Origin: Takakia lepidozioides
Lineage: Eukaryota; Plantae; Bryophyta
Assembly: GCA_030704615.1 (NCBI GenBank)
Contig: CM060732.1
Coordinates: forward strand, 18,166,001 to 18,230,000
Direction: 5' to 3'
Length of the DNA: 64,000 bases
Numbering within the stretch: the first letter of the stretch is position 1; every line of letters starts with the position of its first letter. Position numbers and translations under genes: made by a program. Shown piece after piece: positions 30,080 through 60,329 of this stretch. The notes beneath the pieces are model-generated. The model saw nothing but the letters and a program-made list of their open reading frames with translations. It did not search any database and had not been told where the DNA came from.

Positions 30080-30779
30080 CCCTTTGGCAATGAGAACTCT
30101 CTATGAAACAACTCATTGAAATGAGTCATCTTCCGTGTATCCATGTAGTCTCCTAGACTCTCATTCTCTCCTTCCTCCAAGGCAACTTGAATTGGCCGAG
30201 TTGAGTGGTGTACAAGGCAAACTGAGCCAAGGCAACCTTGCGAAGCTGCCAAAAAAATACAGTCAGTTAAATAACTGTGTTAATGTGTCATCAACAAAAT
30301 GAATCAATTGCCTTGAGAATATAGTGATTATAAATGTACCTGCCACCAAAAAGTCCTTCTATTCAGCCAAGGATCAAGTGTTGGCCCACTGATAGGCCCG
30401 GGTGGAAAAAAATTACGGTCGTGAAGTGTTTGGTCTCTATTCCATATATGTAGCCATTCCACCTTTTCTTCTGGATCCACCCGGGCTGTAGCAATGTTCA
30501 CCATTTTCTCTTGGGTCATTTCCTCTGATCCTGCCTTTACACGTGACCAATGCAGTTTAAGTTCTTGGCCTAGAAGTTTGGTGCAACCTTCCATGTACAC
30601 ACCTGCAATTGAGGAAGATTGGGGTGTGGAACACCGGGAAGGGGGGGGGTGGTATTTGGATATGCCCAAGGGTACTATCCCCTATGCAGAAATGGGACTT
30701 CATAAGGAATGTGTTCGCAGGTAGTCAGTGAGTGATGAAGGGGGTATCTCCACTGAAGTCCCTGTTTTTGATCTGGAGC

Positions 30780-32668: not shown

Positions 32669-33939
32669 TTAAATTTGTACAATACATTATCCTCATTGTC
32701 AGGCCGAATTTTTGGTTTTTTTTTATGATACATGTGTTTCTCTCTGTGTTACGGTAAAAAAAATGGGGCAAATGACATGGTTGAAATCAGATTTCATGTT
32801 ATCTTCCTGTCATTTGATTTATCTATGTAATAGTTTGTACATAGATCTCTACTGCATTTCATAGATCCCTTTACTGGAATGCGAGTCTGACATGCACTTC
32901 GGCACTATCAAATTTCATCATATTAGTAAGATCAACCCTTATGAGTAGTGTGGCATGTTATGTACACACAGGGTGACTATCTTTATCTCATTAGTGTTTC
33001 ATTTCATTAGTGTTTCAAGTCTGAATGGGTAATATGGTGTATGAACTATTTGATGGATATCTTTGGTGGACATTATGTTTTTGTAAAATAAAATAAAAAG
33101 AAGAAGATAGATATTAGATACTGCAAAACCTATGTAACAAGATTAAATGGGTGGTGGTTTGGTAAGGATTACGTTTTTTAAGTTATGAGATTGCGGGTTC
33201 AATTACCAATCAATAGTGTTTTTTGTAAAATTGAATTCCCTTGCGGGCCATCGCCATTTACTGCCCAAATGTGTAGGCGGACCATCTCCATCACATTGTC
33301 AAGCTCCCTAGCATTCCTTGAGCATTGCTCCATTCTGAACTTCAAACTAGACTCCCACCATTGGAAGAGCCCGTACCTTCACCATGTGTATCTAACAAGG
33401 AGTCGTGCCTCGTCACTTTTTAATTTTTTGACCTTTTTTCACATGTTGGAAAGCCACAAAAGCCACATGTTCCTCTCCCATTCCTACACTCACCCATGTG
33501 GAATAATAATACAATGAATATGGAATATTCATATATAGAATATATTCTTATTCCATCCTTTTGATATTTTGACTATGGACCCTAAGATTAGATGAATCAC
33601 AATTTTTTTGTTTTTTTGGGTACCCTTATTTAAGTGATGTGCATATAAAATTGCTCATATGCATATCTAAAATTTGTATGCACGCATACATTCCTACATA
33701 TGCATGCATTTGTGTGCGCATATAGTATAGGCTGCCTCGGTCGATCTTGTAGCGGAGGAAGGTGCTGCTTCTCAATATGGGGATCTCGACTTCTCCTACC
33801 TGGAACAAGACGTTCGTGACAACAGGGTAGATAATGGATGACTCGATTCTCCCACATGATCTGCCCGCCTATATTCCCAAGAATACAGGCACGGCTCTGG
33901 GTGGTCCATTTGAATAGCCCCTTCCCCCACTCTGTGGGG

Positions 33940-34179
33940 GAGGAGGAAAATGAATTTTCTCTTTGCCACCACAGTGAGAAGCTGGCCATTGGTTTTGGGC
34001 TGATCAGCATGACCCCTAGGACGCCTCTCCGTCTCATCAAGAATCTTCGAGTGTGTGGTGACTGCCACACCTCCACCAAATTCATCTCAAAGTTTGTTGG
34101 CCGAGTAACTGTTGTATGGGATGCTAACCGCTTTCACCACTTTGAAGATGGGATTTGTTCTTGTGGTGATTACTGGTGA
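33940..34179 (+). pseudogene. Isolated C-terminal DYW deaminase fragment of a PPR RNA-editing factor
   Basis: HHSEKLA...[10 protein letters not shown]...[16 protein letters not shown]. No upstream PPR, E domains or PG box. Confidence 0.92.
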
Positions 34180-35321: not shown

Positions 35322-36199
35322 GTATGGACCGGCTAAGAGTTTTTAATATAACTCTGAGTGTATTTAGCATAAAACATTTTGTGGAGTAAGATAAAATAAA
35401 TTCCCCAAATAATTTATCAATAAATTAACCAGGGCTACAATCCCCCTGTTAACTATAAAAAAATAAAAAATAAAAAATAAAAAAGTGAAAAAAAGATTAT
35501 ATTGGTAAAATATAAAAGTACATATCTAGTAAACCCTTCACTGTTTACATGGTTCAGATGGATCCCACTAACTTTTGGCGAGGACTACGCTTACTCGACG
35601 AGTTTAAGGCAAGCGTGTGAGGTGGTGGGGCCCGCTGGCCTGAGCTCCTGGAGGCTCCGGCAGACTATGAGTAAAATTTCTTCCCCCATTGAGGTGGGGG
35701 AGCGCCCACACCTCCTGCTCCCTCCTCACGCTCCCCACCTTTAGGACCATGTTCCCAAACATTCTCCAATTTTGCTCCCCTGTTCCCAGTCCAAGATCCT
35801 TGCTCCCCATAGAGCGAGGAGGGGAGCAGGGACCAGGAACAGGGAGGTTAGCTATTTCATGAGCATGAGCGGCATGAGCGGAGTAGTAAGACAATCGGTT
35901 TTCATGAGCAAGAGTACAAATTTCGAAAATAAAAAACAATAAAAAACAATAATTTAATGCAATGTGTCAGGAAAAACAAATATATTATTCGGCCCCTTGA
36001 AGGGAAAATTGTATTTGACAGTTGTGCTCATGATATTTCGTCTTCCGCTCATGCCAATTCCCAGCGACATGTGCAAAATATGGCGCCGAATTTCGCGGTA
36101 ATAGGGTCCGTAACCTTAAAAAAACGGCGACGGTATTTCGCGGGGATAAGGTCTCTCTGGCGAAAAATGGTGCGAATTCCGCGGCTATAGGTCCCTCAT

Positions 36200-36440
36200 G
36201 ACAGGTAATCGGCGCCCATTTCCAGTGCATGTTCGGACTTAGCCAGTTTTTCGGCGCAAATAGGGAAATTCGGCGCCATTTTTCCAGACACTGTACCAGT
36301 GCATGTTGGGACTTAGCCAGTTTTCGGCCCAAAAAAAAAGAAATCGGCGCCATTTCCAGACACTACGGTACCAGTGCATGTTGGGACTTAGCCAGTTTTC
36401 GGCCCCAAAAAAGAAAATTCGGCGCCATTTTTCCAGAAAT
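36200..36440. repeat. ~75-bp tandem repeat x3 (GGACTTAGCCAGTTTT and AAAT(T)CGGCGCCATTT cores)
   Basis: Direct reading. Shares cores with the array at 40513-41075. Confidence 0.85.
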
Positions 36441-36591
36441 GGCCCCACAACTGCTTCTGTTGGATCTCAGTTTGAATGGAATATTGCCTCATTCCATGAG
36501 TTTTGGGGTGCATTTCATTACACTGCAAAAAAAAGTCTGATACAGCAAAATGCAATTGAAAATATCCATATGGAGGATTCCCTTTGCCCCA

Positions 36592-39500
36592 TCAATGATT
36601 TCTGGAATCCCTAAGGAGGAGTTTGTGCAGCTCGTTCACGCTCAACGTCGGTGCATGAATAAAGTCATCAATAGTCACGTTCATCCTCAACCTCTTCAGG
36701 TAAATGTAATACAGATGCTTGCACGGATAATACTTCGAACCCTTCTTTGCTTCCATCAACGAGAAGTCCGTACAATTGCAAGTCGGCTCCACTCCAATCG
36801 TAATTGTGTATACATCGTCGCGTACAGCCGAGCCGGCCGTTGCCATCGATACACACGCCCAAGGCCGGGTGGGGGTACGTCCACGGAGCTCTGAATAGTG
36901 CAAGCCATCCCAAGAGCATTGGCAATCCGAGTCTCATTCAACTTGTTGGGAGGGTGTGTCGTCTCTTCACTCTTCCGAATCGCATTGTGGGATGTGCAGA
37001 ATTGTCCAATCCGTCTCTACTGGACCGAGCAGTCTGCAATGGCTGGATCTGAGGAACCGGAAATGCGTGGGTCGGGATGTCTGTGCGTTGCACCATTCGA
37101 CATCCTGCTGCAGATAGAGCATCCGCCTCATTCTGAGAGAGGCTTCAACCCGGTGCAACAGGCCAGACGCCGGAGGCTCCGGCATTCCCTGAATCCCGTA
37201 CTTGGGCTTGCAAATACACAGGTCATTATGTCGTGCCTACAGAACCAAAATGTCTGCGTTGTGGCGTGAGCAAATGTGGGAGTAAAAAATCTGCCGCTGA
37301 AACAAGGTGCAGATACAGCACCGTGTGGGTTCCTCCGAATCATCTCACCACATCGTGCTCTCGTATCCACCCGGATGGCGCAGCACTTCCCTCGAAATGC
37401 CGGCAATGTCCTCGCAATTCTCCATTGTGACTCCAACACTCTTGTCTCCACAATGGGAATGTTGTACTGCTTTACTACAATGGCTCGTTATGTTGCCGGG
37501 GCACGCGCCCTGTGCTCAAAGGAGATGACGATCTTGAACGTGCAGGACTTGCGGTGCTCGACGAGACCTCCTCGGGCAACATCACCAGACCACGAGGGAG
37601 CGTGCGAATATTCTGTCAGCTCGCCATGAATCCTCTTCTCGGCCAGGTGCCTCGTCAAGTCTTCGTCTCACTGGACGGGTATGAACATCTCCTTCCAAAT
37701 GTTGGCCTCTTCGCAGCAATGGCGTGTCCCAAAGGCCCTCTCGCAGGCCGCCGCCCACTTCCGAGGATTCTTCGATCTAGAGGCAGTCCGCATCAGCATT
37801 TTTCCTGCCTGTCCGGCCCCAAGCCCCACTGTTTCCCTTTCAAGAACTCGTTGTACCTGCATTGCTGCATAATTGACCTCACAATGTCCTCCGTTGTGGC
37901 AGTGAGGATGTCCACCAGATGCGCCGTAGAGGAGGCACGCCGGGAAGAATGCATTGATTTGGCCATGTTTGTCGTGGGCATGTCGGTGTCGGGTCGACAC
38001 ATTTCCTGCCACACAAGCACATGTTGAGGTTACAAGCAAGTTACAAATATGACCAAGAATATATTCACAACGGACCGAATTCATGCAACTCACCTCCCGC
38101 ATATAGTCGCCGAACTGGAGGAAATGATAATGCCACCATGCTAGCCAACTGACCAATTGCTCCTCGTCTGATTTCCTTACAGCACCTGACGATGTCCACC
38201 AGCCCGTATACATGCAAACTGTGTCTCTGCATCATCCAAGGTGGGAGCGCTTCCACGCAAGGCACATGGAACGGTTCTCCTCTCTGAAATCTGGCGCCAC
38301 GAGCCTGGTTGTGTACTGCGAAAGGCTCTGCAGAAAATGGAACCCACAAGATCTCTCATTGCCTTCCATGGGAACATTGGGGTCTTGCCCGTACACCCTT
38401 CGGATGGCAGCCCAATTTGCTTGTGCGTTGTCCGCCATGAAACCACGGAAATTGGGAGGGGCAATCCGCCTTGGCCATCTGTTCGTTTATTCCTGCCAAA
38501 GAAGCATCTCCGATTGTGTGTCCTCTCCTTTCATCTCACAATAGCAATTGTCATTAGCATCCTGCAGTGGGTGTCGTAGACATGTGCACCCATTGTCACC
38601 CACTGGTGATTTGTAATTCGCTTGATATGGTCGAACATGACCCAACTGTTTGACAAGTCCCTGGGCACTCGTCATCCTGTCGACCAGTTCGACGCCGCTG
38701 CTAGGTCCACACGTGGACATTTTGAATACGAAACAATGATCTGCCTCAGTCCCTTGTCCTGGAAACCTACTTCCTTGAATGTAGTCATATCCACATCGTC
38801 GCTTCACCTCCAGAATGGAGTGCATATCCGAGCCACGCCCAATTTTCTGTTTGCATGAGACAATGTGGTTTCGGACATTCGGTGAACATACGTGGGACAC
38901 GACTCCAGTAATGCCTCCATTTCCTTCTCATCGAGAGGAATTCTATCAGAGCCGTCTTCCGACATAATTCTGGCCAATGCCATCTTATGGGCGGCTTGGA
39001 GCTGTATCTGTTTGGGTTTGGCACCCGGTCTCAACTTAACCTCCTCCTTAACGAGCTGCTCTGCCTCATGGGCAGCCTCCCGCGAGTTCCCCCTCGCCAA
39101 TTTGTGACAATGGGAACCAACATGTATGCAAGCTTGGGTGAGGTCAGGGAAACGGTGCAACACATAGAACTGCTTGGCATTACAAACAGACATGCAGTGT
39201 GGTGGTGGTTCTTTGCAATGCGCACACTTAAATGTGGAGTTCGGAACCTTCTCCTGAGCTCGAAATGGTTGATGAGCTGTGCCTGTCCAATCGGGTCTCG
39301 TTCCTGTGACCTCTGGATTTAAAGTGGAAGCAAGTTGGGGAGAAACACCGCAACGCGCCGCACAAACAACGTAGCGCACCCGCACACCATCGAGCATCTT
39401 CATGCTGTGGTTTTGGTAACGCACCAAGGATGACCGTCATGTTTTCTATCCATATCTGTCAACATTCCGGACGCCCTCGAGTAGTCCGCCCGAGGAGGGA

Positions 39501-40116
39501 ACTCAAAGAAGATATTACCGTCGACGTCGGCGGGAAGGCATGTAACCGATTTAATTGCAAACTTGTTGTAGTCCAGCCCGGCCAGCTCCGACCGGTGTCC
39601 CTCCAGGTGAAGCCCTTGTAGAATTTCAAGAATAGATCGAACTGCGGTGCTCGTGCTGGGAATATGACTCCCTCCTCCACTAACGTCCATTGAGGACTTG
39701 CCTGATCTCCAGGACGACCTCGGAACTTCCATGACCTCATCTGAGTCGGACAGGTTGTGAACAACCCGGTTCTCGCTCGTCTTCATGGATGGGTTCGGCT
39801 CTGGATTTACTTCGTTGCGGACTTCTCTCTTTGAGGTAGCCACTCTCTGATTCGCGGATTGTTTCGTGGAAGACGCCAGGATAGAAGGTACATTTGGCGT
39901 GCAAATGAAGTCCCCAACAGCCCTGTATATGACGCTGTCCGATGGTGGAACTCGCCATTCCCTGCCATCGCCGAAATCATCGTGGAGCACAACAATACTC
40001 TCGACAACAAGGCCGTTTGAGTCCTTCCTTTCCTCCTCCAAAAAAACCGACCCCGGTTTCAGGTGGTATCGAACGCACAATATTTCTCCATCACCCGGCA
40101 GATGTCCCCTCTGCAC
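36592..40116 (-). pseudogene. Mutator-like (MULE) DDE transposase with C-terminal SWIM zinc finger, frameshifted
   Basis: CFVFKMST, VMFDH, GFMADNAQANWAAIRRVYG, CGFH (CxxH), WLAWWH, TNMAKSMH (expected catalytic E appears as K). SWIM TCNCTDF...CKHLYYIY in ORF 36592-36903. Confidence 0.75.
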
Positions 40117-40512
40117 GGAAATGAAGCTCTATGCTCGTGAGGAGGGCAGTACACTGTAGCGCTCGGGTTTTCCGCCATGGGAGATGTGCACACAGACTGC
40201 CAGGATGGCGGTGCGGGAAGCTCCCTGATAGAAGGGGGCAGCGATGGGAAGGAATGCGGTGCCGATTTGTCCGAGCGACGAAGCCTGATCCAAATCCAGG
40301 GAGCCAACTATCTCAAAAATCCACAGTCAGAGTGTTAATGAACCTTGTCTCCGGAATGCGGCCCCTGGGTCTTTGCGCAATAACTGCCAACGGTATGCAG
40401 TCAGAAAGTGGGGGGCCGTCCGGATGATGTCGGCTGAAGGGGAGAAGCCGGCACCGTGCCGTCACATTACTACCCCCGAATGGAAATTCGGCACCTAATA
40501 TCCAACATCCAA

Positions 40513-41075
40513 AGTCCCTAGACTGGCTGGCCCGGAACTGGAAATTCGGCGCCATTTTCCAGTTCTAGGCCCTATCCGTTCAGGGACTTAGCCATTTTCG
40601 GGCTAAGTCCCTAGACTGGCTGGCCCTGAACTGGAATTCGGCGCCATTTTCCAGTTCCAGGCCCTATTGCCGTTCAGGGACTTAGCCATTTTCGGGCTAA
40701 GTCCCTAGGGTGGCTGGCCCTGAAGTGGAAATTCGGCGCCATTTTCCAGTTCTAGGCCCTATTGCCGTTCAGGGACGTAGCCATTTTAGGTGGCTGGCCC
40801 TGAACTGGAAATTCGCCTTTTTCCAGTTCTAGGCCCTATTGCCGTTCAGGGACTTAGCCATTTTCGGGCTAAGTCCCTAGGTGGCTGGCCCTGAACTGGA
40901 AATTCGGCGCCATTTTTCCAGTTCTAGGCCCTATTGCGGTTCTGGGACTTAGCCATCTTCGGGCCAAACCGGGAAAAATGGCGCCGAATTTCCAGTTCAG
41001 GGCTCCCAAGATGGCTAAGTCCCTAGGGTGGCAGTCACCGAAAACCGAAATTCGGTGCCATTTTTCCATTTCTAG
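40513..41075. repeat. ~94-bp tandem array (~5 units plus an inverted partial unit) with internal hairpins
   Basis: Units begin GTCCCTAG at ~40513, 40607, 40701 and 40873. Stems GGACTTAGCC/GGCTAAGTCC and AACTGGAAA/TTTCCAGTT. Confidence 0.9.
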
Positions 41076-41156
41076 GCCCACTCACATCCGCCCCACCTGG
41101 GAAAATGGTGCTGAATATGCATTTCAGGGACCTCATTGTGTTTTTCATGAATGCAG

Positions 41157-42601
41157 GTACTGCAAGTTCTCCCTTTTGGAGAAATGTCATCTGTCTTTCG
41201 AGCCACCATTCTTCCTGGCATGGAGGAACCCTGGGGCTGACTCCATGTACACTGACGATATTGTGAAGGAGTGGCATCTGGAACATTTGCGTGATTGCCC
41301 TTGGTATGTGGACCTTCCGCCCGGCTCGCTCGACCCATCCGAGTTTCAATTGAAGCTGGATGCTGAATTCCGACGAAACCGGGCTCCGCTGCCTCCGTTG
41401 GGTGCAAAAGAGGCAAAAGCGCTTGCGAACTCCAGGAAAGCGGCAGAGCTTGCTCAGGCAGGAATTCAGGAGAAATTGCATGAGAAGAGTAAAGGCCAAA
41501 GGAAAAGGACAGGAAAACATGAGTGCAGTAACACCCAAAAGAAGAAACCATCGGGGCATCGGAGGAGGCGCAGGAGGGGACCCAAGAGAGTGACTCGGGC
41601 GACGACTTTGTTCAAGGTCCTGCGACTGCTGTTGCTCCTACCCAATCACCGGTCGTTCGGGTTCCCAAGTCAGTTCGGTGGGACTGGCTCTGCCAAGAAG
41701 TTGGCATTGAGGACGAGCCTACACGGCGGTATTTGGCAGTGACGTTTACGCACAGCCAAAGCTAGAACCTCCAACCATCATCCAATGCGTCAATGAGAGC
41801 TTCCTTGACGCTCTCGCTGCCAGGTGAAGAAGGTGGCACACAACAAGTCTCTGGCGGAGCAGAAGGGGAAAGCCAAGAAGAGGGCTGGCGGTACAGAGCC
41901 TAAAGACACCCCTGGTTTTGAAGCCATGATGGAATTCTTCACGGCTGCACGGATTGCAAGAGCACTCGGGGGGGGGGGGGAGAGAGAGCTTGCGACATGA
42001 TTCTCATCGACATTCCAGATGGGGACTGCTGGAGGGCCTGGATGGTGTGCCCACCTGGAACAGGTTTACCGAGGACTACTGGAAAGCCGGGTTTGGGCTG
42101 GCGGGGATGCTTCTGGATGACGGTGGATGTGTGGTTGGGAAGACCACAGAGAATGCGGTGGCAAGGTGGACACCGAAAAGTGTCACCCCGGTCCTCCTCA
42201 GAAAATGGTTCTGCATCAGTACACAGGGGTTGCGAACAGAGGGCCAAAGTGTAAGTTATCAATCTATTGCATTCACTTCATTGTGGTGTATGTTAAGTAG
42301 ACCCTGGAGTTGATCCCTTCTTTGTTGGATGTGCAGACATTGGTGTTTGAGGCATATTGCTTTGTGAAGAGAGGGTCTACGTTCAAATTCCGCAACGACG
42401 GTCGTCTTGTTGATGTCGCTGTGGACCCTGTAACCTACGATGTCATCTACAACTATGTGCCCCACTCCAGTATGCCGAAGGACACAAAGACAGGCAAACC
42501 GTGGCGGTACAGCCGGACCCGGAGCCCTGCTTTCATCCAAACCCTCATGGAGACGTGCTCGGATGTCCAAGGGCGGATTCTGGACCTCACATGCGGCACG
42601 G
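41157..42601 (+). pseudogene. Beta-class N4C/N6A DNA methyltransferase-like gene 2, divergent from the MULE transposase and interrupted by the Gypsy element
   Basis: DMILIDIPDG...VPTWNRFTEDYWKAGFGLAGMLLDDGGCVV; intron ~42251-42336; RSPAFIQTLMETCSDVQGRILDLTCGTG then a GTAAG donor at 42602. Clearly homologous to gene 1. Confidence 0.72.
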
Positions 42602-42656
42602 GTAAGCCTTCACGTGCTCAGTTTGTACCCTGGCCCGATTGCAATTGCATGCCGCA

Positions 42657-43343
42657 TGTCGTGCGCATACATATCGCTACACAACTACATCGCTGTCCAA
42701 AACCACACAACACATGTGCACACCACACACTAGTATACCACTAGTCCACCACTAGTCCAGCCACTAGTCCACCACTAGGCTACAACTAGTCAGTCACTAG
42801 GCTGCCACTATGCTGCCCACTATGGCAGTCACTAGTCCACACAATGATAAAGAAGAAGAATACAAGCACGAGCTCACAAAGCTGAAGCATAAACTCATGC
42901 ATATATAACCTCATCACTCAAATACAAGTCAAGCCAAGTGCACCCCACGCCATGGGGAATCCACACTACGGCGCCATAGCTAGGCGCGGTGAGGCTCAAC
43001 TCGAGAAAGATGAGCCTCCCGCGCTTGCCGTGAAGATAACCACTCCAGGGCCTAAATCTGCCTTGACCCCTGGATTGACACTTGGGCCAATCCCAAATGT
43101 CAATATGTAAAAGCTAGCTATTTCCTTCCTAGCTAGTTTCACACTAGTGGTAAAATAACTTGACAGCTGTCGTGCGCATACATATCGCTACACACTACAT
43201 ATCGCTGTCCAAAACCACACAACACATGTGCACACCACACACTAGTATACCACTAGTCCACCACTAGTCCAACCACTAGGCTACACTAGTCAGTCACTAG
43301 GCTGCCACTATGCTGCCCACTATGGCAGTCACTAGTCCACACA
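42657..43343 (-). repeat. 3' LTR region of the Gypsy element: two ~180-bp TG...CA direct repeats (42657-42843, 43168-43343) separated by 324 bp
   Basis: Both start TGTCGTGCGCATAC and end CTAGTCCACACA. A PPT-like tract (minus strand AGGGGGGCGAT) abuts 43343. Confidence 0.75.
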
Positions 43344-43603
43344 ATCGCCCCCCTAGCTGGTGCTTAGGTCCCTCTAAGTCCAGGTAGCCACAAGATGTGA
43401 TAGTGACCATAGCCTCACTAAGTCCTCCACCACTATCCCTACTACACTCAAACTCGATAGATCAAGAGGCCGGGTGCAAGAGTTGCCCCATCGTTAGTCG
43501 CCGTCTTGCAACCTGTGAACTTGAGCTTGGGATCTCATGTATTGACTCCTATGAGCTTGGCCTCCCATGTCTTGTTAGCTGCCTCCAGTCATGTCCACTG
43601 CCA

Positions 43604-43747
43604 CTATCCCAAGCAGTGTGGACACAACCAATCTCCGTCAGGAACCTTCTCAAGAGGTGGTGTCAAGCATCCCATATGCCAACCCCTTGAGCATCGATCA
43701 CACAGCATGGTGGCTGCCCCTTTGGCAGACCCACAGAGCATGCACCT
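43604..43747 (-). CDS. PHD finger at the integrase C-terminus
   Basis: CMLC...MLCDRCSRGWHMGCLTPPLEKVPDGDWLCPHC, a canonical C4HC3 with Trp before the last CxxC. Confidence 0.93.
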   Translation of the reverse strand, partial: RCMLCGSAKGAATMLCDRCSRGWHMGCLTPPLEKVPDGDWLCPHCLG

Positions 43748-45000
43748 CAAACCTGCAGGTACCACTGCCAAGTTTGGGTCAACTCTGCCATCGACATTGG
43801 GAAGGTGACATGGCGCACAATTACGCACATGGTCCTTCCAAGTCATGCCATCCCGACCCTCCAAGATCAGGACCCCTGAGGGCAACACCTCTCGAACCCT
43901 CAGAATAACACGCCCTGCAGTAACATCCAGAGTCGTAGGAGCAGTCTGCTGCAAATAAACATAGTCACCAGGGCTAAACCTCCGAACCCCAGGACGATAT
44001 CCTCCACCACGTATAGTGGCATACCTCAACGTATCACGGTGCTGTGTGCAATGGCAAGGTTCTCAAAAGCCATGGGCATGACTTTCTTGAACAACTCTGC
44101 ACGCTGATCACATGCACGTACCCACACGTCCGGATCGTCAAGGTTAAGGACTTGAGCAGTGTCCCTACGAATGGCTGCAGGCAAATCCGGCTCTCGGCCA
44201 AAGAGAAGGAAATATGGTGAGAAGGAGGCAAGTGATGCTTGTTTGCTGAACCTGTAGCCCATGGCTAACCAAGGAACCTGAAGATCCCAATCTCCTAGGT
44301 GTCCCTTCTGCAAGCCATACTTGCGCAAACCCCTCTTCACCGTCTGAACAACTCTCTCTGCTAAGCCATCGGCCTCAGGATGATCCCGAGAAGTGGTGCG
44401 GTGGTCTATCAAGGCTTTATCACACAAAGCCTGAAACTCCCCCAAGAACTCTCTCTCTCCCTTGGTCCGTGAGTACCTCAGCTGGAGCACCAAATCGGCT
44501 AAGCACACGATCCAAGAATGCATACGCAGCCCCCTCACTAGCCTTGTCAGGCAATGGAACCAACTCAATCCACTTGGAGAAGTGCTCCACCATCACCAAC
44601 ACATATCTGTGGTGGCGCATAGTCAGTGGCAACGGTCCTGCGAAGTCAAGACTCCACCTGTAGCCCAATCCCATGATTGGTAAAGGATGCAACTGTGGTG
44701 TAGGGGCGTTGAATGAAGCACGCACCCTGTCACACACCATGCACCTAGCCACGAACTGTTGCACCTCTGTATGCATACCACGCCACCAATACTGCCCCTG
44801 CAGTAAACTGTGAGTGCGTCGCACTCCAAAATGCCCCAACTCCTCATGGGCATGCCGCACTAACCGTGCACGCTGTGTGGGGTGAGGCACAATCCTCACC
44901 CGACCATCCTCCCACACTCGAAGTAGGTGTATCCCCTCCCACTTGAACCTCTTGGCTCGTTGCAGGATCCGATCCCTCTCCCTGGCAGTCACAATGGCTG
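43748..45000 (-). CDS. Integrase (HHCC zinc-binding + DDE core), frameshifted
   Basis: HEELGHFG...CMVC; WSLDFAGP; LTDQG; ADGLAERVVQTVK. Confidence 0.93.
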
Positions 45001-45224
45001 CCGTGTCTCCCGTGCGGAGGTAGTCCAACACAGCCGAATCCTCATGTATATCTCTGGCACCACCTAGCTCATCACTAGCCTCAGGGTCCTCAGACACTCC
45101 GTCTACAGTCATCCCTGTTGTAGGTCCAATCTGACCTCCCGATGCCAAGATACACAAAAATGCAGATGCGTGCCATCCCGGCACCATCTCCTCGTCCGTC
45201 TCACCATGCCACCGAGCTCCAGTG

Positions 45225-45542
45225 TCATCCTGCTGGCTCCTGCTTGTCTGACTCCATCAACCACTTGAGTGGCTGGTGATCCGTGACAAGGGTGAAAAGA
45301 TTGCCGTATAGATAGCACCTGAAGTGTGCCACGGCCCACACTGCAGCTAAGCACTCTCCCTCATATGAGCTGTACTTAGCCTCTGCAGCGTTGTTCGAGC
45401 GGCTAGCGTAAGCCACTACGAACTCTCTTCCCTCATCATCCACCTGTGTGAGCACCGCTCCAAGCCCCAGCATGCTCCAATCCGTATGCAGCTGAAAGGG
45501 ACGCCCCCTGATAGGTCGTCTCAAGATAGGCGCCGAGGTCAA
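45225..45542 (-). CDS. RNase H (C-terminal part apparently deleted)
   Basis: FQLHTDWS..GLGAVL; VVAYASR; YSSYEGECLA; TDHQPLKWL. The usual RW..L.EY...NAD.LSR tail is missing. Confidence 0.9.
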   Translation of the reverse strand: MTSAPILRRPIRGRPFQLHTDWSMLGLGAVLTQVDDEGREFVVAYASRSNNAAEAKYSSYEGECLAAVWAVAHFRCYLYGNLFTLVTDHQPLKWLMESDKQEPAG

Positions 45543-45576
45543 CCTCGCCTTGAGCTCTTGAAAAGCTCGTTCCTGC

Positions 45577-46463
45577 TCATCTTCCCACTGCCACTGGGTC
45601 CACCTTGGTCAGCTTGGTTAGAGCCTTTGCAATGGTACTAAATCCCTTGACAAACCGTCTATAATAGTTTGCCAACCCCATGAAAGCTCGAACTCGGCTC
45701 ACATCCGTGGGGCGTGGAATTTGTGCAATGGCCTCTACCTTAGTCTGCTGTACCCCCAATCCTCCAGGATATATCATGTGACCCAGATACTCAATCTGGT
45801 TGTGGAAAAACTTGCACTTCCCCGGATGCAACTTCAATCCGTGCGCTCTCAAGCGCTCCAATACCACCTGAAGGTGTCTCTCATGCTCCTCCATCGTAAC
45901 ACTAAAGATGATGATGTCATCTATGTAGCACCGAGCAAAGTCCACCCCTGCTAGAATCCTATCCATGACTCTCTGAAACTCTGCAGGAGCATTCTTAAGC
46001 CCAAATGGTAAGAACCGCCACTGATATAGGCAATCCTTGCCGTGCTCATTGATCCCCCAATGCCGTCTTCTGCTTGTCCGCCTCCTTGATTGGCAACTGG
46101 TGATATCCGGATCGTAAATCCAAAGTGCTAAAGGCCTTAGCATGCCCGATGGCATCAAAGATCTCCTCTGGTGTTGGCATGGCATACTTATCGGACTTGG
46201 TCTGACGATTTACAGGCCGGTAATCACCGCACATACGTCTCTCCGTCCAATTGCCATAGACATCCTTCTTGGCTGGCATCACTGTGGCTGAAGCATACTC
46301 TCCACCAGAGAGCTCCACCAAACCTGCCTCCCAGAGATCTTGAGTCCTCATCTGAATCAAACCTCTCCATGTCACTGTATCTATAGGGTCTCCGAAAGAT
46401 TGGCGTGTCAGTGGCCAACTCAATACGGATCTCTTGACCCTTCAGTGCTCCCAAGTCCTTCAA
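45577..46463 (-). CDS. Reverse transcriptase (Ty3/Gypsy), frameshifted
   Basis: RMCGDYRPVN, FSTLDLRSGYHQ, LPFGLKNAPAEFQR, YIDDIIIFS, YLGH. Confidence 0.95.
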
Positions 46464-46929
46464 ACTGAAGGCAAAGCAATTCCTGTAAGCCCTCAGGAAC
46501 CGCCGTATACGTCGTCTCTCTCCTCCGGTGACAATGGGTCCAATGTCAGGCTCCCAATTGTCCTCCGTAACTGCAACCTTAAGTCCAGTGGGCTTAGAGG
46601 TAGAGGACGCGTCCAGTGGTTGCTATGTTGCAACCTCTTGAGCAGTACTCCCTGCCTGCTCAGTCAATGACAAGGCCTCATCCTGCCCCATCATCTCATC
46701 CTTGAGGACCTCCTCAACCCGAGAAGAATCCCCAACCTCATCCATCACAGCCGCCTTGGCTGCCAACTCCCTCTGAACCTCGAGCACCTCCCACGTGTGC
46801 CATGGATGCATGCACCCCGTGGTCCTCACATGCTCGCCCCCACTCACTGCCTGTACCGTCTCGGTAGGCAGAGAGACCATTGAGGGAAGTGTACTCCGCA
46901 CTCTGCGTTGCTCAGCCAGAGCCAAGCTG

Positions 46930-47880
46930 ATAATCCAGGTCAAGCAATTGAGATCCATTGCTTGCCCCAACACTTGACGACGTGATGCCTCAGAAAGAGA
47001 CGACACCGCCGTGGTACCAGTGGTAAAACCCATTGCCCGCTCACGCTCGTCAGCATTAGGCTCCACTAACTGCTGCAACTGAGCATCCCACAGGAGGCCA
47101 GGTCCACTATCCCGGAAAGCATGCGATCCTGGGAAGCTGAGCAGTGTAGGTAATGCTGCTCGTGGTTGACCCACCTTGTGACCACTGCCAAAGGCGAACG
47201 GTCATCGTGTCTCACACGCTGAGACTGCCTCCCTGTGTCCAGAATGTTATCCACTGTGAGATGTGCTGGCCGCTGCACCCCATCAAATGCGCTTGAGCAG
47301 TGCGGGTGGCATCAAGTTAGTCCACCATAGCCGTGGACGATGAGCCCGTGACCCCACTGTAGCTGCATCTAGCAACACTGCTGACCCAAGCCACGACCGG
47401 ACTTGATGCACACTGGCCATCACCCTGGCCCGAGAATCGCCCATCAGTGGCACATTCTCCAAGATGTATGCTGGAGATAGCTTGATGAAGCTGCAAGTGG
47501 CGCAAAACCCGCACCATCTCCCAAAACAGACCCGACCTCGAGTCTCGCAATCCATTGCCATGCCCGGCTGATGAATGCCCTTGGCAGGGCCAACCTGCCA
47601 CTACCAGATCAATGGAGCCAACCCGCTCCAAATCCTGCGCCCCCCAGCAACGAAATGTCTGCTGGCAAGGCCTGCTGATATCCACGAATTGCAGACACCG
47701 ACAACAACTCAGGTACCGCTGCACCAACTGAGCAACATGGCGAAGTGAAACGCGTCGTGCAGTCTCATCCCTCTCCACATACAGGTAACGCCGAACTCGT
47801 ACACCTGCCTGTAACACAGCAGCCAATCCGGTGCTGATCCCGCCAAACAAGTCCAGAAGACAAATGCCTTCATCCGGATA
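46930..47880 (-). CDS. C5-cytosine DNA methyltransferase (DNMT3-like) domain within pol
   Basis: Motif I LLDLFGGISTG; II YVERD; IV IDLVVAGWPCQG (~47581); VI YILENV (~47451); VIII AHRPRLWWTN; IX EPNADERERAMGF; X RRQVLGQAMD. All in canonical order across 1-bp frameshifts. Confidence 0.92.
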
Positions 47881-48084: not shown

Positions 48085-48641
48085 TCATCCTGCTCTCCCG
48101 GGAGGTGGTACATCCTCTGAATGAGCATTGCCCTCAAGCAACTCTCTAGGCCAACTCACTGCCGCTGTGAATGCTGCTAGTGTCGGCATCTTGCCTCGCT
48201 GGGCAACCGCAACTCCTCCTATGAACGTCACAGGGAGCTGCACACGCCGGCCCTCCCCTGACTGCCATGCAGGCCTATAGGAAGCTGACTCCTCCCAAAA
48301 ATCCAGGGTGAAGCCCATGGGGTACAACACTGCCCCACCAACCAGGACATCGTATGAGACCGCGTCTGTCACAATGGCCTTGGCTCGCATCACTGAGCCA
48401 TCTGTAGGGTGATCCGGCCGTAGTCTGATAGCCAACTCACGCCGTGTCATGCCCCGAGCCTGCTCCGATCCTCCCAGAGACGTCTGTATCTGGAAAGGAC
48501 AAGGCTCCATATCCGCCTCCGTGAGGCCCAAGCCTGCAATAGCAGCTCTGCCCCAGCATCAATGGCTGAGCTCCCGAGTCCAACAAGACCCGCAGTGGCC
48601 GGTACCTCTTGCCTGCCGGTCCACTCAAACAGAAAATGCAT
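48085..48641 (-). CDS. Aspartic protease
   Basis: RVLLDSGAQPLM ... YDVLVGGAVL. Confidence 0.85.
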
Positions 48642-48875: not shown

Positions 48876-50785
48876 TTACCCCGGCGTCGCAATCATGGTA
48901 GCCGAGAACAATGGAGCCTGGCACACAGATGTGGCCGCTCCTAGCAGCACACTAGCTGCCGTAGCCTTGGCAACACTAGGTAGTGGTGCTACCCGTGTAG
49001 CTCTCCCCAATGGCATAGTAACCTCCGCCTCGGTAACAGTCGGGCGAGAACTAGGTGCCATGGATGGCGTCGACACTGTCTCCGCCAATGTGAATGACTG
49101 AGGAAGCCTAGCCTGACGGCTTGCCTCCCCACGCTGTGGATCCAACTCCACCTCTGCACCTCGTGGCTCAGGAACTCGTGCTGCTCCTCGAGTCACGGCT
49201 GCAGCAGACTCCACCTGCACTAGTGGTAGTGCTGCTCCACACATGAATCCCATGCCTCCCATATCTCCTCCCTCAGGAGCAGGAGGTGGACCATCCGGCC
49301 TTAGAGCCGGTACCACCTGAGCTGTAGCCATGGCAGCGAGCCTCTGCTCTAGCTGCTGAAGCCGGTTGGCCATGCCTTGGTCAACACCCTGACCTCCGCG
49401 TCCTTGGCCATGTTGAGCTTGCCCTTGGCCTCGTGGCTGGCCACCTCGTCCTCTCTGGGCTGCTCCACCTCGCCCCCGGCCACCATTGTTCCCTTGGAAC
49501 TGGCCTGGGCGCAACTCAGGATGCAAACCATAACACTGGGCCTCTCCATGCCCGTGCTTGCCACAATGCCCACACTGCAACTGTGCAGGCTGTGCATGTG
49601 CCGGCCCTTTGCCTCCCTCTGGGCAATCCTTCTTGACATGGGGTCCTCCACATGTCCAGCACACCACATCCGCCCGTTGTTGGCCAGCAAATGAAGGGAG
49701 AGACCCCTGCATCTGAGGTCCTCTCTGCCCTTCCCTGAGCTTCACCTGAGCCCCTTGTTGCCTTGAGCACGTTGAGGTAGTGGTTGGCTAGGAGCACCAC
49801 TACCCCGTGGTGTCTCCTTAGCAAATCCCACCATGACCACTTCGTTCCTCCACCATGTTGAGCTCTATCCGCTCTGCCAGCAAAAACACATTTGCTAAGG
49901 TGGGTTGGGCCGCTTGTAGGAGAGTTGCATCCCGCACCCTTCTCCTCAGCTCCTTGTCCAATATCCCATACCAGAATTGGACTGCCTGAGCTTCCGTAAC
50001 CCCTTGGGTTACATTTATCAAGCGCCTCATGCGAGTGAAAGCCTCCCTCAAGCTCTCGGTCGGCTTCCGTTGGAACTCTTGCAAGCTCCGCAACTTCTCT
50101 GTCCTCACCCCTTGGTAGTTCCCTCTCAACTCTTCGAAGAACTCCACAACAGGGTTGAAGGCAGGCACGGGTGCTAGTGCTGGTGCGGTAGTGGCTTGGG
50201 TGGACGTCGTAGCTACTGTACCACCAGTCCCACTGCTGCTTGCTGAAGCTGCCGGTGCAGCGGCAGGTGTAGCCACTGCCCTCGTGGCTCTAGTGCCCCT
50301 AGTGATGGAGACATAGTCGGGTGACCAGTACATCCTCCACTCCTCGATCTCAACCTCATGCCCCCCCCGCCTGAACTCATGGTAATCATCCATAGGCGGC
50401 CCCTCAAGGTGCTGAAACAGCCCTTCCATGCCATGAAAGGCGTAAATAGTTGTGGATTGCGCATTTGCTGCAAATCACACCAACTATCAAACTCTTGGAT
50501 AAAATCATCCAACTCGATGGTGCCCACCGCCCCAGAGTACCTTCGTGGCCCCTTGGTAGCTCCATACATCTCCTCCATTGTGTCCCCAAACAATGGCAAA
50601 GAAACAACTTGCACCGCCGGTATGAGTCCTCCTGATTCACAATCCGAATCAGAACCTTCCGTAGAAGACACAGGAGGTGAAGGTGGCCTAAACCGCACAC
50701 CTCGTCTCGTGTACCCACTAGTATCGCTAGTGCTCGAACCGGCACTGTCCCCAGCAACTAGTGGCACCTCCGTGTTGACACTCAA
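48876..50785 (-). CDS. Gag with two CCHC-type zinc knuckles, frameshifted
   Basis: LRSLQEFQRKPTESLREAFTRM (major-homology-like); CWTCGGPHVKKDC; CGHCGKHGHGEAQC. Confidence 0.85.
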
Positions 50786-51518
50786 CCGGTCATGAACATG
50801 TCCCTAACCCCCTCTCCACAAGGTAACCGGGTAGAGAACCTGTTGCGGCTTATGGTTTGGAATACTAAGTTCCTAACATAGCCTACACCTGTACCTGCAT
50901 CCACCGCAAGCACTCCTATGGTTGGCTGGTCATCACCTCCAACCTCACCACAGGAGAAACAATGATGGTCTGGCTGGTCATCACCCCAGCCTCACCATCG
51001 ACAGCATGCTCTAGGACTGGCCGGTGATCAAATCCGGACCAATCACCTATAAAAACAAGCGCCCACACAAAACTAGCATGGCGCACAGTCAAGCATGCAG
51101 GTATGGAGGGGATCCAAACACAAGAAATCAGAACGACAACTCCCCCACACCAAAAACAACTCCACGGTGTTGCTCCTGCAAGGACACCCCAGCCCAAACC
51201 CGGACTGACTCTTGCCTCCACCTACGGAAAGGTCTTGGCCTAATGAGAGGTGGAAACTACGAGGAAGAGAAGCTAAAGCAATGCCTAACCCAGCATGCCC
51301 TCATCCCAACACTCTTCCTCTCCTCTCTTCCCTCACTTGCATGACCATGGGAATATCATGAAGATACTCCTCAAACCGCCCTCCACGAGCTTCAAAATTC
51401 GGCCTTCCAACCACATGCCAGTCCTTAGGCAGTCCACCAGTGCCTCCACGAGTCAGCACAGGCCGTCCACAGGTCAACACGGGCCACCACAGACCAGCAC
51501 AGGCCCACACAGCTCACT

Positions 51519-52521
51519 GGTCACAGCCGTCACAATCCCAGGCCAGGGCCCAGCCTGTCATAGCCCTCACAGCCCCACACGCCTGTCACAGCCCCGCACA
51601 CCCCACAGCCCGTCACACAGCTCGCCACATCCCCTCACCCATCAAGCACGGCCCACACAGCCCCTCACAGCCCGTCACAGCCCCAAAGGCCTCAGGCACG
51701 GCTTGTCACAGCCCGTCAAGCCCGTCACAGCCCAAAGGCCATGGGCTCCTGTCACAGGGCCCCACAGCCACTGGGCACAGCCAGTCACACCCCGCACAGC
51801 CCGTCACAGCCCCCACAGGCCACTGGGCATACCTGTCACAGCCCGTCATGGCACAGCCTGTCACAGGCCCCTCACAGCCCCACAGCCCCACAGGCCACTG
51901 GGCACAGCCTGTCACAGCCCCTCACAGCCCCAAAAGCCACGGGCACACCCGTCACATCCCGTCACAGCCCGTCAGCCCCACAGGCCTCAGGCACGGCCTG
52001 TCACAGCCCCTCACAGCCCATCACCCAAACAGCCCCAAAGCCATGGGCACGCCCGTCACAGAGCCCCCACAGGCCTCAGTCACGGCCCTGTCACAGCCCC
52101 AAAGGCCATGGGCACAGCCTGTCACAGCCCCTCACAGCCCGTCACAGCCCCAAATGCCATGGGCACAGCCCGTCACAGCCTCACATGCCACTGGGCACAG
52201 CCTGTCACAGCCCCTCACAGCCCGTCACAGCCCCACAGGCCTCAGGCACGGCCTGACACAGCCCCTCACAGCCCGTCACAGCCCCAAAGGCCTCAGGCAT
52301 GGCCTATCACAGCCCCTCACAGCCCGTCACAGCCTCAAAGGCCTCAGGCACGGCCTGTCACAGCCCCTCACAGCCCATCACAGCCCCAAAGGCCATGGGC
52401 ACAGCCTGTCACAGCCTGTCACAGCCCCTCACAGCCTCAAAGGCCTCAGGCACGGCTTGTCACAGCCCCTCACAGCCCATCATAGCCCCAAAGGCCATGG
52501 GCACAGCCCGTCACAGCCCCA
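51519..52521. repeat. Minisatellite of (G/C)TCACAGCCC 10-mers with a ~50-bp higher-order unit, in the Gypsy 5' leader
   Basis: Repeated CCTGTCACAGCCCCTCACAGCCCGTCACAGCCCCAAAGGCC. Confidence 0.92.
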
Positions 52522-53085
52522 TCCATGGCCGCTCTGGCAGTTTAGCCATTTTTCCAAGGGGTTTAGCCACGCCAAGCTAGGGTTTGTGTCTCTTGGACTC
52601 TAGGCTTCTTTCCACCGAGCTATGGCGGCTGTGAGGAAATCAACAAGGTATTCTTGCTCTATCGGCTCCCACACCACCATAGTAGCCCTAAGCCATGAGG
52701 TGGTTGCCACAAACCAAGCCTTCTTTCTCACTTAGCCTCCCCAAACACGCCACTAAACTCAATGGCAAACAACCAAGCCCTGCTGGTTCCCAGCCCTTGT
52801 GAGCACTCATTCAAGCACTCTCCTTGGCCATAGCATCTGTCTTAGAGCCTATTCCAGCCCCCTACACCTGCTGCTTCAAGAGTTGCGCTCCCTTCAAGCT
52901 TGAAGTTGAAACCCCAACTCACATAGGCCCTACAAGTGCTTTTCTTTCACTCCAAGTGGAAACCAGCCCTAGACCTTCCGTTCTAGCTCTCTAAAGCTTG
53001 AAAACAAGAGCTTCACCAGAGACAATGGTGTGCCCAAGTTGGTTGTTCTGATGCGGAAACTAAGCCAATAGGCTCGTCCATCAAG

Positions 53086-54003
53086 TTGCCAATGTTAGAT
53101 GATTCATACATCGTGGTAGCTATCCGCGAGGAGCTCATCTCCACGATTTGCTTTGTTTGCGACGGCGAAGGTCATGTGCAATCTGACTGTCCCAAAATCA
53201 ACAGGCAAAACATCTCCGACGCTGCCAAGCACCCCTTTCCACAAACAGAAGTAGTTGGCTCCTCATACAAGACTGCTGCTCAGGCCACTCACGCTCCAGT
53301 CACCATGAAATCAGACGTGGAGGTCCCTCATCAGGGCCAGACTTCTAAAATAAGGAAGAGAAACGGAGAGAAGTCCGGGTCGTGGATACACCCAAACCGC
53401 CCATATGATCTACATCATGTCAGAGTGAAGGACGCTTGGGCATCTTTTCCTTTCTCTGAGGAGGAGCTGCAATTTTTGGATAGCACAAGTCTTGCAATTG
53501 CTTTCCTAGAACTGCACACTTTCACCATAAATCCTCTCACTGGATGGGCCCCCGGATCAGCATATGCGCGAGATAGGGCAGCTATTTGTGTAACTCCTCT
53601 GGTTTACACCCTTTCTGACGATTACACAAATTATTGCTTGCCAGAGGACGGGGAGGGTTTCCGCTTTGCATGGGTTTCTAAGCCCCTGGCCAAGGATTTG
53701 GGTGTCGGAAGTGTGAAGGATATCACTCTCTTCCTCACCAGCCAGATCCTCAGGGAGTTCTTCCCCCATATATCTCTATCTCTATCTCACATTCATGACA
53801 TAGGCATCATGGTAGAGAACAATGTTGCCCTTGTCAATTTGGCAGTTATACATGTGCTCCCAATCTTCCATGTTATCGACTTGGGACAGGCCTCAAGCAA
53901 GCCTATCAATGGGGTATGGGTGGACAAATTTGGCTTGTCTTGTAGGGTCAACAACCCTAATGCCTGGGCACGCAGTTCCCTAATCATGGAAGAAGGTATT
54001 TGA
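53086..54003 (+). CDS. 305-aa ORF with an N-terminal CCHC zinc knuckle, unknown function (possibly retroelement-derived chimera)
   Basis: CFVCDGEGHVQSDC. The rest is not recognised. Confidence 0.35.
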   Translation: MPMLDDSYIVVAIREELISTICFVCDGEGHVQSDCPKINRQNISDAAKHPFPQTEVVGSSYKTAAQATHAPVTMKSDVEVPHQGQTSKIRKRNGEKSGSWIHPNRPYDLHHVRVKDAWASFPFSEEELQFLDSTSLAIAFLELHTFTINPLTGWAPGSAYARDRAAICVTPLVYTLSDDYTNYCLPEDGEGFRFAWVSKPLAKDLGVGSVKDITLFLTSQILREFFPHISLSLSHIHDIGIMVENNVALVNLAVIHVLPIFHVIDLGQASSKPINGVWVDKFGLSCRVNNPNAWARSSLIMEEGI

Positions 54004-54243
54004 ATGGTAGCAGAATTGGCAAGTTTGCCAAAGCTCAAAGGCTTGGCAATGCAGGCTGTGCAGGAAGGCAGGAGTGTGGTTTCATCAACAACAAGGAGTT
54101 GGTGATATACAACAACACAGACATGGTGCTCTCCTCCAATGGGGCACACACAGCCTAGCAGGACAGGTGCATGACGAGTGAGGTTGGCACCTACAGGGTA
54201 GCAAAATTATAGTAAGAAATCATAATAAAATGGAATTCTAGCA

Positions 54244-54890
54244 ATGGCAGAGCCGGAGAACCAGTCGAAGGACAACTCCTTGATTCTGGGATTGACAGAC
54301 CATGTGACACTAGAATGCGTTGCACGGGTGCTTCGCTCTTATTATTTACCGTTGAAAGGTGGTTGTAAGAAATGGCATAATGCGCTAGCAGTGGTTGATG
54401 ATGAAGGCCGCAACGATGTCCTTGAGACTCGCAAACGGGTAGAGATCAAGGAGGAATGGGTTTACATATTGGCTGGGCCTGCACACAATGTACAGCCTCA
54501 TAAGTGCACGGAAGTGGTGGGCGTTTGATTCCGTTAGTACGCGTTGGTGTTGTCTGCTTGACTACCCTGTGGAGTATACCTTTGAAGTTTCTGACAAGGA
54601 GTCGGCAGTTACATGAACTCAACTTTTGGTTTGCGGACAGTACCCTAGAGGCTACATGGTATGGAGGTATGATTTAGAACTCAACGAATAGTCTTCAACG
54701 CCAAGAATGATTCAAGATCGATGTCTTTTTGACTCGGCAAATGTGGGCAAATATGTCTATTTGTACTGGAAGTCTTAGCAATAGATGACTCTCAAAGCAA
54801 TCAAGTGCTACAACTCGCTACTTCAAGCATGGGAACCTCTCCCCGATCTCAACATAGCACGGGAAAGGGAGCTAATGGGAAAACAAGGAT
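54244..54890 (+). pseudogene. F-box/kelch-repeat protein pseudogene
   Basis: SLILGLTDHVTLECVARV...CKKWHNAL...RKRVEIKEEWVYILA, followed by decayed kelch-like segments with stops. Confidence 0.75.
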
Positions 54891-60253: not shown

Positions 60254-60329
60254 CTAAAACTAAAAATAAAAATAAATTAATAACTCCATTCCGAGTAGCA
60301 GACACGGTAGGGTAAGTTTGAATGCCAAA

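Follow-up and report, generated by a model that had tools for sequence, protein, structure and literature searches.

Introduction

The closest described relative of the element reported here is KnitGypsy-Dnmt3 of Klebsormidium nitens, the 'Gypsy-DNMT3' of streptophytes (de Mendoza et al. 2018, PMC5890265), which unites the domain set of a Gypsy retrotransposon with a DNMT3-like domain in the Pol ORF and with DIRS-like repeats. The word PHD is absent from the text of that paper and from three of its supplementary text files, figures aside, and its Fig. 4c might draw such a domain. In chromoviruses, a chromodomain occupies the place behind the integrase and is presumed to guide insertion (Neumann et al. 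2019, PMC6317226); within the literature cited here, no histone reader other than the chromodomain has been shown to direct the insertion of plant or fungal LTR elements. The EpiLTRs (Fernandez-Moreno et al., bioRxiv 10.64898/2026.05.21.726589) are Ty3/Gypsy elements that carry a chromatin reader together with DNA methyltransferases, namely a chromodomain, a DAM and a DNMT4-related DNMT; in the available text of that preprint, 'PHD' occurs solely in the acknowledgements.

PHD fingers have been captured by other mobile elements, among them CR1 LINEs, REM1 (PMC6673714), Ginger1 (PMC2836005) and those treated by Grau-Bove et al. (bioRxiv 2021.11.30.470311), where an influence on insertion is proposed, and in retrotransposons they are called widespread (PMC6673714; bioRxiv 2021.11.30.470311). 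Among the passages of these sources considered here, none describes a DNMT-bearing Gypsy element whose integrase ends in a PHD, and Supplementary Table 6 of Grau-Bove et al. may list such fusions. Neither a PHD-tipped integrase in a DNMT Gypsy element nor a readthrough site of such an element appeared in the titles and abstract openings searched, a scope outside which lie most subscription papers and all figures. The readthrough signal that matters below is that of TMV, in which UAG is followed by CAR YYA and the short product is made in about 10-fold excess (PMC2754532).

Here we describe an element of the bryophyte Takakia lepidozioides on contig CM060732.1, where the window, meaning the whole stretch of DNA analysed, spans 64,000 nucleotides (positions 18,166,001 to 18,230,000). 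The family, PHDs in transposons, and elements that pair a reader with a methyltransferase have each been published already, and the element in the window is an under-described variant of a known family. What we add is how widely the PHD is spread through the lineage, that PHD and DNMT have each been lost separately, and a conserved readthrough-type stop.

Results and discussion

A DNMT-bearing Gypsy element with split repeats

The domain order of the element is Gag-PR-DNMT-(TAG CAR YYA)-RT-RH-IN-barrel-PHD, and its parts in the window are as follows.

49497..50761, minus strand: Gag with zinc-knuckle-like motifs, frameshifted (PF03732, E 0.0011, below the cut-off)
48223..48625, minus strand: aspartic protease, LDSG at 48583
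46914..47850, minus strand: DNMT3-like C5 cytosine methyltransferase in three frames (motifs FGG, WPCQ, ENV, RAHR, GQAM)
46617..46625, minus strand: conserved in-frame TAG CAA CCA that separates DNMT from RT, a predicted readthrough site (UAG-CAR-YYA)
45706..46363, minus strand: reverse transcriptase, YIDD at 45927, frameshifted
45216..45587, minus strand: RNase H (PF17919, PF17917)
44137..44887, minus strand: integrase H2C2 zinc finger and DDE core with a single frameshift (PF17921, PF00665)
43808..43987, minus strand: putative integrase C-terminal beta-barrel, degenerate GPY/F-type, SH3/Tudor-like fold (predicted structure)
43604..43747, minus strand: PHD finger, C4HC3, the final pol domain, with TAG after it (PF00628, E 3.8e-10)
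43168..43345, minus strand: split direct repeat B1 (against B2, 0 substitutions and 4 indels)
43162..43171, no strand: palindrome GACA-GC-TGTC at the B1/A2 junction, a head-to-tail copy of both element ends
42846..43165, minus strand: repeat A2, whose 5′ partner A1 is absent from the window
42657..42845, minus strand: split direct repeat B2, the 3′ end of the element, terminating in GACA

Gag, PR, RT, RH and a DDE integrase follow in Ty3/Gypsy order, with Ty3 Gag-Pol as the best PDB match, and the DNMT (PF00145, E 5.7e-10) lies upstream of RT and IN. In the intact relative L042, the DNMT is closest among PDB entries to DNMT3A/3B/3C, a matter of similarity and not of a DNMT tree, and the protease matches PF13650/PF13975 only below the cut-off. 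From RT to PHD the window copy is broken into seven frame pieces, and its 991 aligned residues contain no in-frame stop. The half from gag to DNMT is likewise frameshifted, and its alignments hold 11 stops, the conserved TAG among them, which are not readable as true stops since these alignments run across frameshifts. That B1 and B2 differ by indels only is what one would expect of a young copy that carries assembly indels or has decayed by indels. The predicted barrel has five strands (ORF residues 34-85) and no Pfam match, and we infer that it is a degenerate GPY/F-type integrase C-terminal domain. Foldseek matches it to the PHF1/PHF19 Tudor domains (TMt 0.75-0.78). A role for the barrel as a Tudor reader, suggested by Foldseek matches to PHF1/UHRF1, was set aside, an aromatic cage not being evident by eye; integrase C-terminal domains have the same fold as Tudor-like barrels.

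Two terminal LTRs are not present in the element, which carries split direct repeats in the order A1...B1-A2-B2 instead. In the full-length relatives L008, L024, L028 and L062/L063 the 5′ copy A1 equals A2, and the ends read TG...CA, some of them mutated. All four independent full-length relatives examined have a 4-bp TSD (AAGG, TCTC, AATC and TTTG), which points to insertion of the integrase type. The junction palindrome, GACA-NN-TGTC, is also found in relatives and joins both element ends. Several copies (L038, L039, L040, L047, L068 and others) seem to stop at the first B repeat, about 290 bases past the PHD and without A2-B2, the outcome expected of recombination between B1 and B2.

Judged by its Gypsy domains, its DNMT3-like domain and its DIRS-like repeats, the element is of the KnitGypsy-Dnmt3 kind. 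It differs from the published element in the arrangement of the DNMT, which there lies in the Pol ORF (as given in the text of PMC5890265), whereas here it is in frame but with a TAG-CAR-YYA before RT.

A positional match between PHD and chromodomain

With the barrel-plus-PHD ORF as query, 76 longer relatives were found, those with a name coming from Marchantia (M. polymorpha has MARPO_0060s0038, Mp_7g09570 and Mp_2g26090 of this lineage), Calypogeia, Sphagnum and Chlamydomonas eustigma, to which an RT-RNase H search added Klebsormidium nitens, Closterium, Chara and Haematococcus (among the best 120 of 1792 matches); in IMG/VR no relative of the integrase was found. A quick IQ-TREE tree of RT/RH was computed from 54 of the 131 aligned rows, with SH-aLRT support and a midpoint root. 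One side of a branch with support 100 is formed by 38 lineage rows, which include the window element and K. nitens P0106. Twelve outgroup rows, three of them chromodomain-bearing, fall outside this lineage and, in a tree that holds no named reference chromoviruses, nothing shows descent of the element from a chromovirus. The K. nitens proteins P0106 and P0134, which we assume to be the published K. nitens copies, belong to the same RT/RH clade as the window element, and both end inside the integrase, before the position of the PHD. No PF00385 chromodomain was found among the lineage proteins listed.

The first-pass annotation had described a complete C4HC3 PHD where chromoviruses carry a chromodomain. 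Since the element belongs to a DNMT3-Gypsy clade apart from the sampled chromodomain rows, that description stands in a positional sense only: the distance from the end of the IN profile to the PHD is 129 aa in L042, and from IN to the chromodomain it is 131 aa in P0185. The likeness to chromoviruses is therefore one of a histone-reader-type domain at the same place behind the integrase; the window element has a PHD and not a chromodomain, split repeats and not LTRs, a DNMT, and an RT/RH clade separate from that of the sampled chromodomain proteins. From the EpiLTRs it differs in pairing its PHD with a DNMT3-like domain and in having no Dam match.

The finger and its histone-reading class

Read on the minus strand from 43747 to 43604, the finger is R-C-x2-C-x10-C-x2-C-x3-H-x2-C-x14-W-x-C-x2-C-LG-stop, with all eight zinc ligands in place, the first Cys at 43744 and the TAG stop at 43606-43604, two residues beyond the finger. 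It matches PF00628 over model positions 1-47 of 47 with 40.1 bits (cut-off 24). The AlphaFold model of the ORF, made from a 30-sequence alignment, has a mean pLDDT of 67 and values of 69-78 across the PHD, and its Foldseek matches are the PHDs of ATXR5 (TMt 0.79, rmsd 2.1), DPF2/3, BAZ2B, BHC80 and UHRF1; the top PDB matches, among 79, are CHD4, KDM5B/KDM5A PHD1, ATXR5, PHF12, BHC80 and WSTF. The finger is a genuine PHD at the integrase C-terminus.

To place it in a histone-reading class, the window finger was compared with 78 scored family fingers. The loop between C2 and C3 has 10 residues in the window and 11 in 61 of the 78. At the position that we take for the cage Trp of H3K4me3 readers, two residues before the His, the window has Gly, and 76 of the 78 fingers have Gly or Ala. 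An aromatic cage with an invariant Trp defines the PHDs that read H3K4me3 (PMC3241642). An Asp follows Cys3 in the window and in 72 of the 78, the residue before Cys3 in the window is the hydrophobic L, and the P-x-G-x-W motif, which reads PDGDW in the window, keeps its P in 72/78 and its G in 64/78; beyond the zinc ligands, the most conserved residues are those of the H3 A1 and R2 pockets. By these residues, and by its nearest solved relatives, which are PHDs of the H3 N-terminus/K4me0 class, the window PHD belongs to the non-K4me3, H3 N-terminus/K4me0-like class and likely binds the H3 N-terminus.

Readers of K4me0 (AIRE/BHC80/CHD4 type) contact K4 either through acidic residues clustered directly ahead of Cys1 or, in the BAZ2A/KDM5 type, through an acidic wall before strand 1 (PMC3241642, PMC5415848). 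Neither feature is seen in the window PHD: Cys1 is preceded by P-A-G-L-R, and the loop at the acidic-wall position contains no D/E. In other family fingers there is a D at Cys1-3 in 36/78 and a D/E at the wall position in 23/78; the loop lacks any acidic residue in 34/78 and has three in 16/78, and P0066 is an example of a member with an acidic loop. The acidic features are missing from the window PHD and its closest relatives, while deeper-branching members often have them. Since acidic residues are missing from the K4-contact positions, the finger may respond only weakly to methylation of K4. Of the first-pass assignment to the type that reads unmethylated H3K4, the class, the P-x-G-x-W and the Asp stand, and specificity for K4me0 is unsupported. 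Unmethylated K4 is found on far more than silent chromatin. A predicted complex of the window PHD (ORF residues 93-152) with the H3 tail (L087, residues 2-31) scored 0.18 and 0.17, the mark being 0.34, in runs without alignment or controls, and weighs neither way.

These residues bear on a possible, if somewhat unlikely, reading in which the PHD is a nucleosome tether blind to marks, a binder of non-histone proteins or a stabiliser of the integrase, with no preference for a chromatin state. The missing acidic cluster and wall in the window copy and its closest relatives favour it, as does the finding that neutralising the acidic patch of BAZ2A weakens H3 binding up to 17-fold (PMC5415848); some PHDs are known to bind non-histone proteins (PMC3241642), and the TSDs and 3′ flanks of the relatives examined show no sequence bias. 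Against it, the conservation beyond the zinc ligands is highest in just the H3 A1 and R2 pockets, and the loops of deeper-branching members are acidic.

Co-occurrence, losses and selection

The first-pass annotation saw in PHD and DNMT a reader-plus-writer pair, whose co-occurrence across related elements would be informative, and the two domains do travel together. The locus sample comprised the best 80 of 380 metagenome loci, picked by integrase-core patterns that contain neither PHD nor DNMT. With the window they formed 60 clusters at 97% identity, of which 27 have both domains, three have the PHD only, two break off before the PHD and 28 were not judgeable on one or both domains. Both domains are thus present in 27 of the 30 assessable clusters (L011 rescored by hand) from these best 80 of 380 loci. 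At 80% identity there are nine groups, seven of them assessable and six of these with both domains; with just nine groups at this identity, the co-occurrence counts are far from independent.

The exceptions include true separations. Two of the three PHD-only clusters lack gag or protease upstream and appear 5′-truncated. In L076/L080, which are nested among DNMT-bearing copies, the PHD is kept and a block of about 1.45 kb is missing, the block that holds the DNMT in the sibling L066. Conversely, the Closterium protein P0085 keeps its DNMT and has no PHD after the barrel, and Closterium members are without the finger; L027 and L060 end inside the barrel, and the finger of L078 is decayed. Of 99 lineage proteins chosen by RT similarity alone, 44 have an IN tail that can be assessed; 38 of these are PHD-terminated, and one of the six other tails, that of P0098, has a divergent finger. 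DNMT and PHD share one ORF in 20 lineage proteins. The place of the DNMT varies: it precedes RT in the streptophyte-type rows, and in a subclade that contains chlorophytes it stands between RNase H and IN. An apparent loss of the DNMT from several long relatives in precomputed Pfam annotation was rejected when a family profile found it in P0038, P0047, P0050, P0052, P0069, P0072 and others.

That the PHD of the window copy might be a non-functional passenger or a chance capture we regard as highly improbable. The copy is frameshifted, its PHD loop is one residue short, and the Closterium members do without the finger, all of which would suit such a view; it is largely refuted by the retention of the PHD from chlorophytes to liverworts and mosses and by pN/pS values well under 1. 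Those values are 0.10-0.43 for the PHD and 0.04-0.33 for IN (15 pairs of six copies, uncorrected and with synonymous sites near saturation), and on such ratios the PHD is under purifying selection.

Several variations on the domain set were seen along the way. The DNMT motif IV, usually GWPCQ, reads GWECQ in P0047, P0050, P0052, P0060, P0115 and P0152 and GWSCQ in P0044, with the catalytic Cys kept and the Pro changed. Many chlorophyte-type members extend 100-470 residues past the PHD, and P0052, which has a long C-terminal tail, shows a PTM/DIR17-like Tudor match after its PHD at residues 1552-1606 (E 8e-5, below the cut-off). In an adjacent Gypsy clade, P0148, P0153 and P0168 carry a Dam adenine methyltransferase ahead of RT, and their PHD lies between RNase H and the integrase; P0163 of that clade shares the placement of the PHD and is without a Dam match.

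A conserved stop between DNMT and RT

In the window, TAG CAA CCA at 46625-46617 lies in the frame of the DNMT, and that frame runs on into the start of RT. L042 consists of exactly two in-frame ORFs, a Gag-PR-DNMT of 1369 aa and an RT-RH-IN-PHD of 1047 aa, with one TAG between them. The window reads TAG-CAR-YYA, as do L010, L042, L046 and L058, the four relatives with the least damage, and the large decayed family has TAG CAA CCC at the stop. Of 44 RT starts that could be assessed (not dereplicated), 30 have TAR-CAR at a distance of 50-80 codons upstream of RT, against a background of 1 in 1435 windows. The context is identical to the UAG-CAR-YYA of TMV (PMC2754532); the difference is that the stop here follows Gag-PR-DNMT in a retrotransposon. 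It is probably leaky, a predicted readthrough site. In L010 a further in-frame stop precedes the DNMT; it is not conserved and was discarded as a signal. No shared RNA structure after the TAG was evident in four copies compared without a shuffle control. The stop is not lineage-wide, given the 20 proteins in which one ORF holds both domains. Where it is present, the DNMT falls on the Gag side and the integrase-PHD on the readthrough side, so PHD and DNMT likely work apart.

The reading we lean towards, with a little more belief than doubt, is that the PHD anchors the integration complex on the N-terminal H3 tail while the DNMT, encoded before the probably leaky stop, acts separately on the element's own cDNA. 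Most ribosomes would halt at the TAG, making Gag-PR-DNMT the abundant product and RT-RH-IN-PHD a minor product of readthrough, from which the protease would free IN-PHD. The PHD would grip A1-R2-T3 of H3 through its P-x-G-x-W pocket and the Asp after Cys3, a grip that would disfavour H3K4me3 promoters and would not amount to seeking heterochromatin. The DNMT carried in the particle may methylate new cDNA, as has been proposed for the DNMT3s of DIRS elements (PMC5890265). CpG o/e is 0.53 in the element, 0.36-0.82 in neighbouring repeats and 0.32 in the DNMT-less L076; since the depletion of the element is unremarkable and L076 is depleted too, self-methylation is unsupported here.

A rival reading, after the first-pass annotation, couples the two domains instead: the PHD, acting like an ADD domain, would take DNMT and integrase to H3K4me0 chromatin, with insertion in silent regions and methylation of the site. 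We consider this quite unlikely. The co-occurrence counts given above from the best 80 of 380 loci (27/30 and 6/7) are what it would lead one to expect, yet shared ancestry alone could explain them. The DNMT is DNMT3-like, 20 proteins join the two domains in a single ORF and in one subclade the DNMT stands directly before IN-PHD, but in the subclade of the window a conserved stop parts DNMT from IN-PHD, the domains have been lost independently (the DNMT in L076/L080, the PHD in P0085), the adjacent clade pairs a PHD before IN with a Dam methylase, and the insertion context is unproven. What survives of the pair is the presence of both domains lineage-wide; their coupling does not, in view of the stop and the losses, and writer activity finds no support in the K. 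nitens Gypsy DNMT, which showed no activity and no methylation in yeast, a result deemed inconclusive by its authors (PMC5890265).

A PHD-tipped integrase would be a second route by which a histone reader steers insertion, one that intact members such as L042 make testable, and the conserved stop turns a question left open in 2018, whether the Gypsy DNMT3 acts on particle cDNA or at the target site, into a concrete prediction in favour of an abundant, Gag-linked enzyme on the cDNA. A wider picture can be sketched in which an old, green-lineage-wide, non-chromovirus Gypsy clade avoids H3K4me3 by its PHD, packages its DNMT3 at the level of Gag through TMV-type readthrough so that the cDNA is methylated beforehand, and integrates by way of a cleaved palindromic end-to-end junction; taken whole, it is speculative and rather doubtful.

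Insertion context in the window

The surroundings of the element contain the following features.

41100-42610 and 30590-32280, plus strand: two copies of an intron-containing gene, 40-60% identical, the right-hand copy interrupted by the Gypsy element
About 36078-41118: probable DNA transposon with a broken minus-strand gene that ends in a SWIM finger (PF04434, E 8e-4, just under the cut-off)
About 52600-61230, plus strand: broken LINE (zf-CCHC ORF, RVT_1 at 57384-58085, zf-RVT at 60276-60869)

The 3′ end of the element lies about 45 bases past the likely splice donor of the interrupted plus-strand gene. In the paralog at 30590-32280, an intron occupies the same position and is followed by a methyltransferase-like exon; the end of the element thus probably sits in an intron of a methyltransferase-like gene. 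The label N4/N6 DNA methyltransferase-like is one that we assign from motifs, and this two-copy gene of the left flank has no significant Pfam, PDB or database match (best PF05175, E 0.18). To the right within the window, neither the next exon of the interrupted gene nor repeat A1 nor a matching TSD was found, and 51-bp tandem repeats beside the LINE (51400-52550) occupy the place where the 5′ end of the Gypsy element is expected. With that end absent, nesting inside another transposon, as the first-pass annotation had it, is unproven, and the 3′ end speaks for a probable gene intron. The region is repeat-rich, and a single insertion cannot show targeting.

Three further observations concern the rest of the window. 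The SWIM-finger element is flanked by a 16-bp motif with 11 copies in both orientations, where 0.54 are expected. Positions 1-26800 consist of tandem units, 92-99% identical, with minus-strand RT-like ORFs that have no Pfam match and whose motifs, in our estimation, resemble Penelope-like elements. At 33862-34176 on the plus strand there is a DYW deaminase domain (PF14432, E 7e-35), a domain typical of land-plant PPR editing factors and a pointer to a land-plant host.
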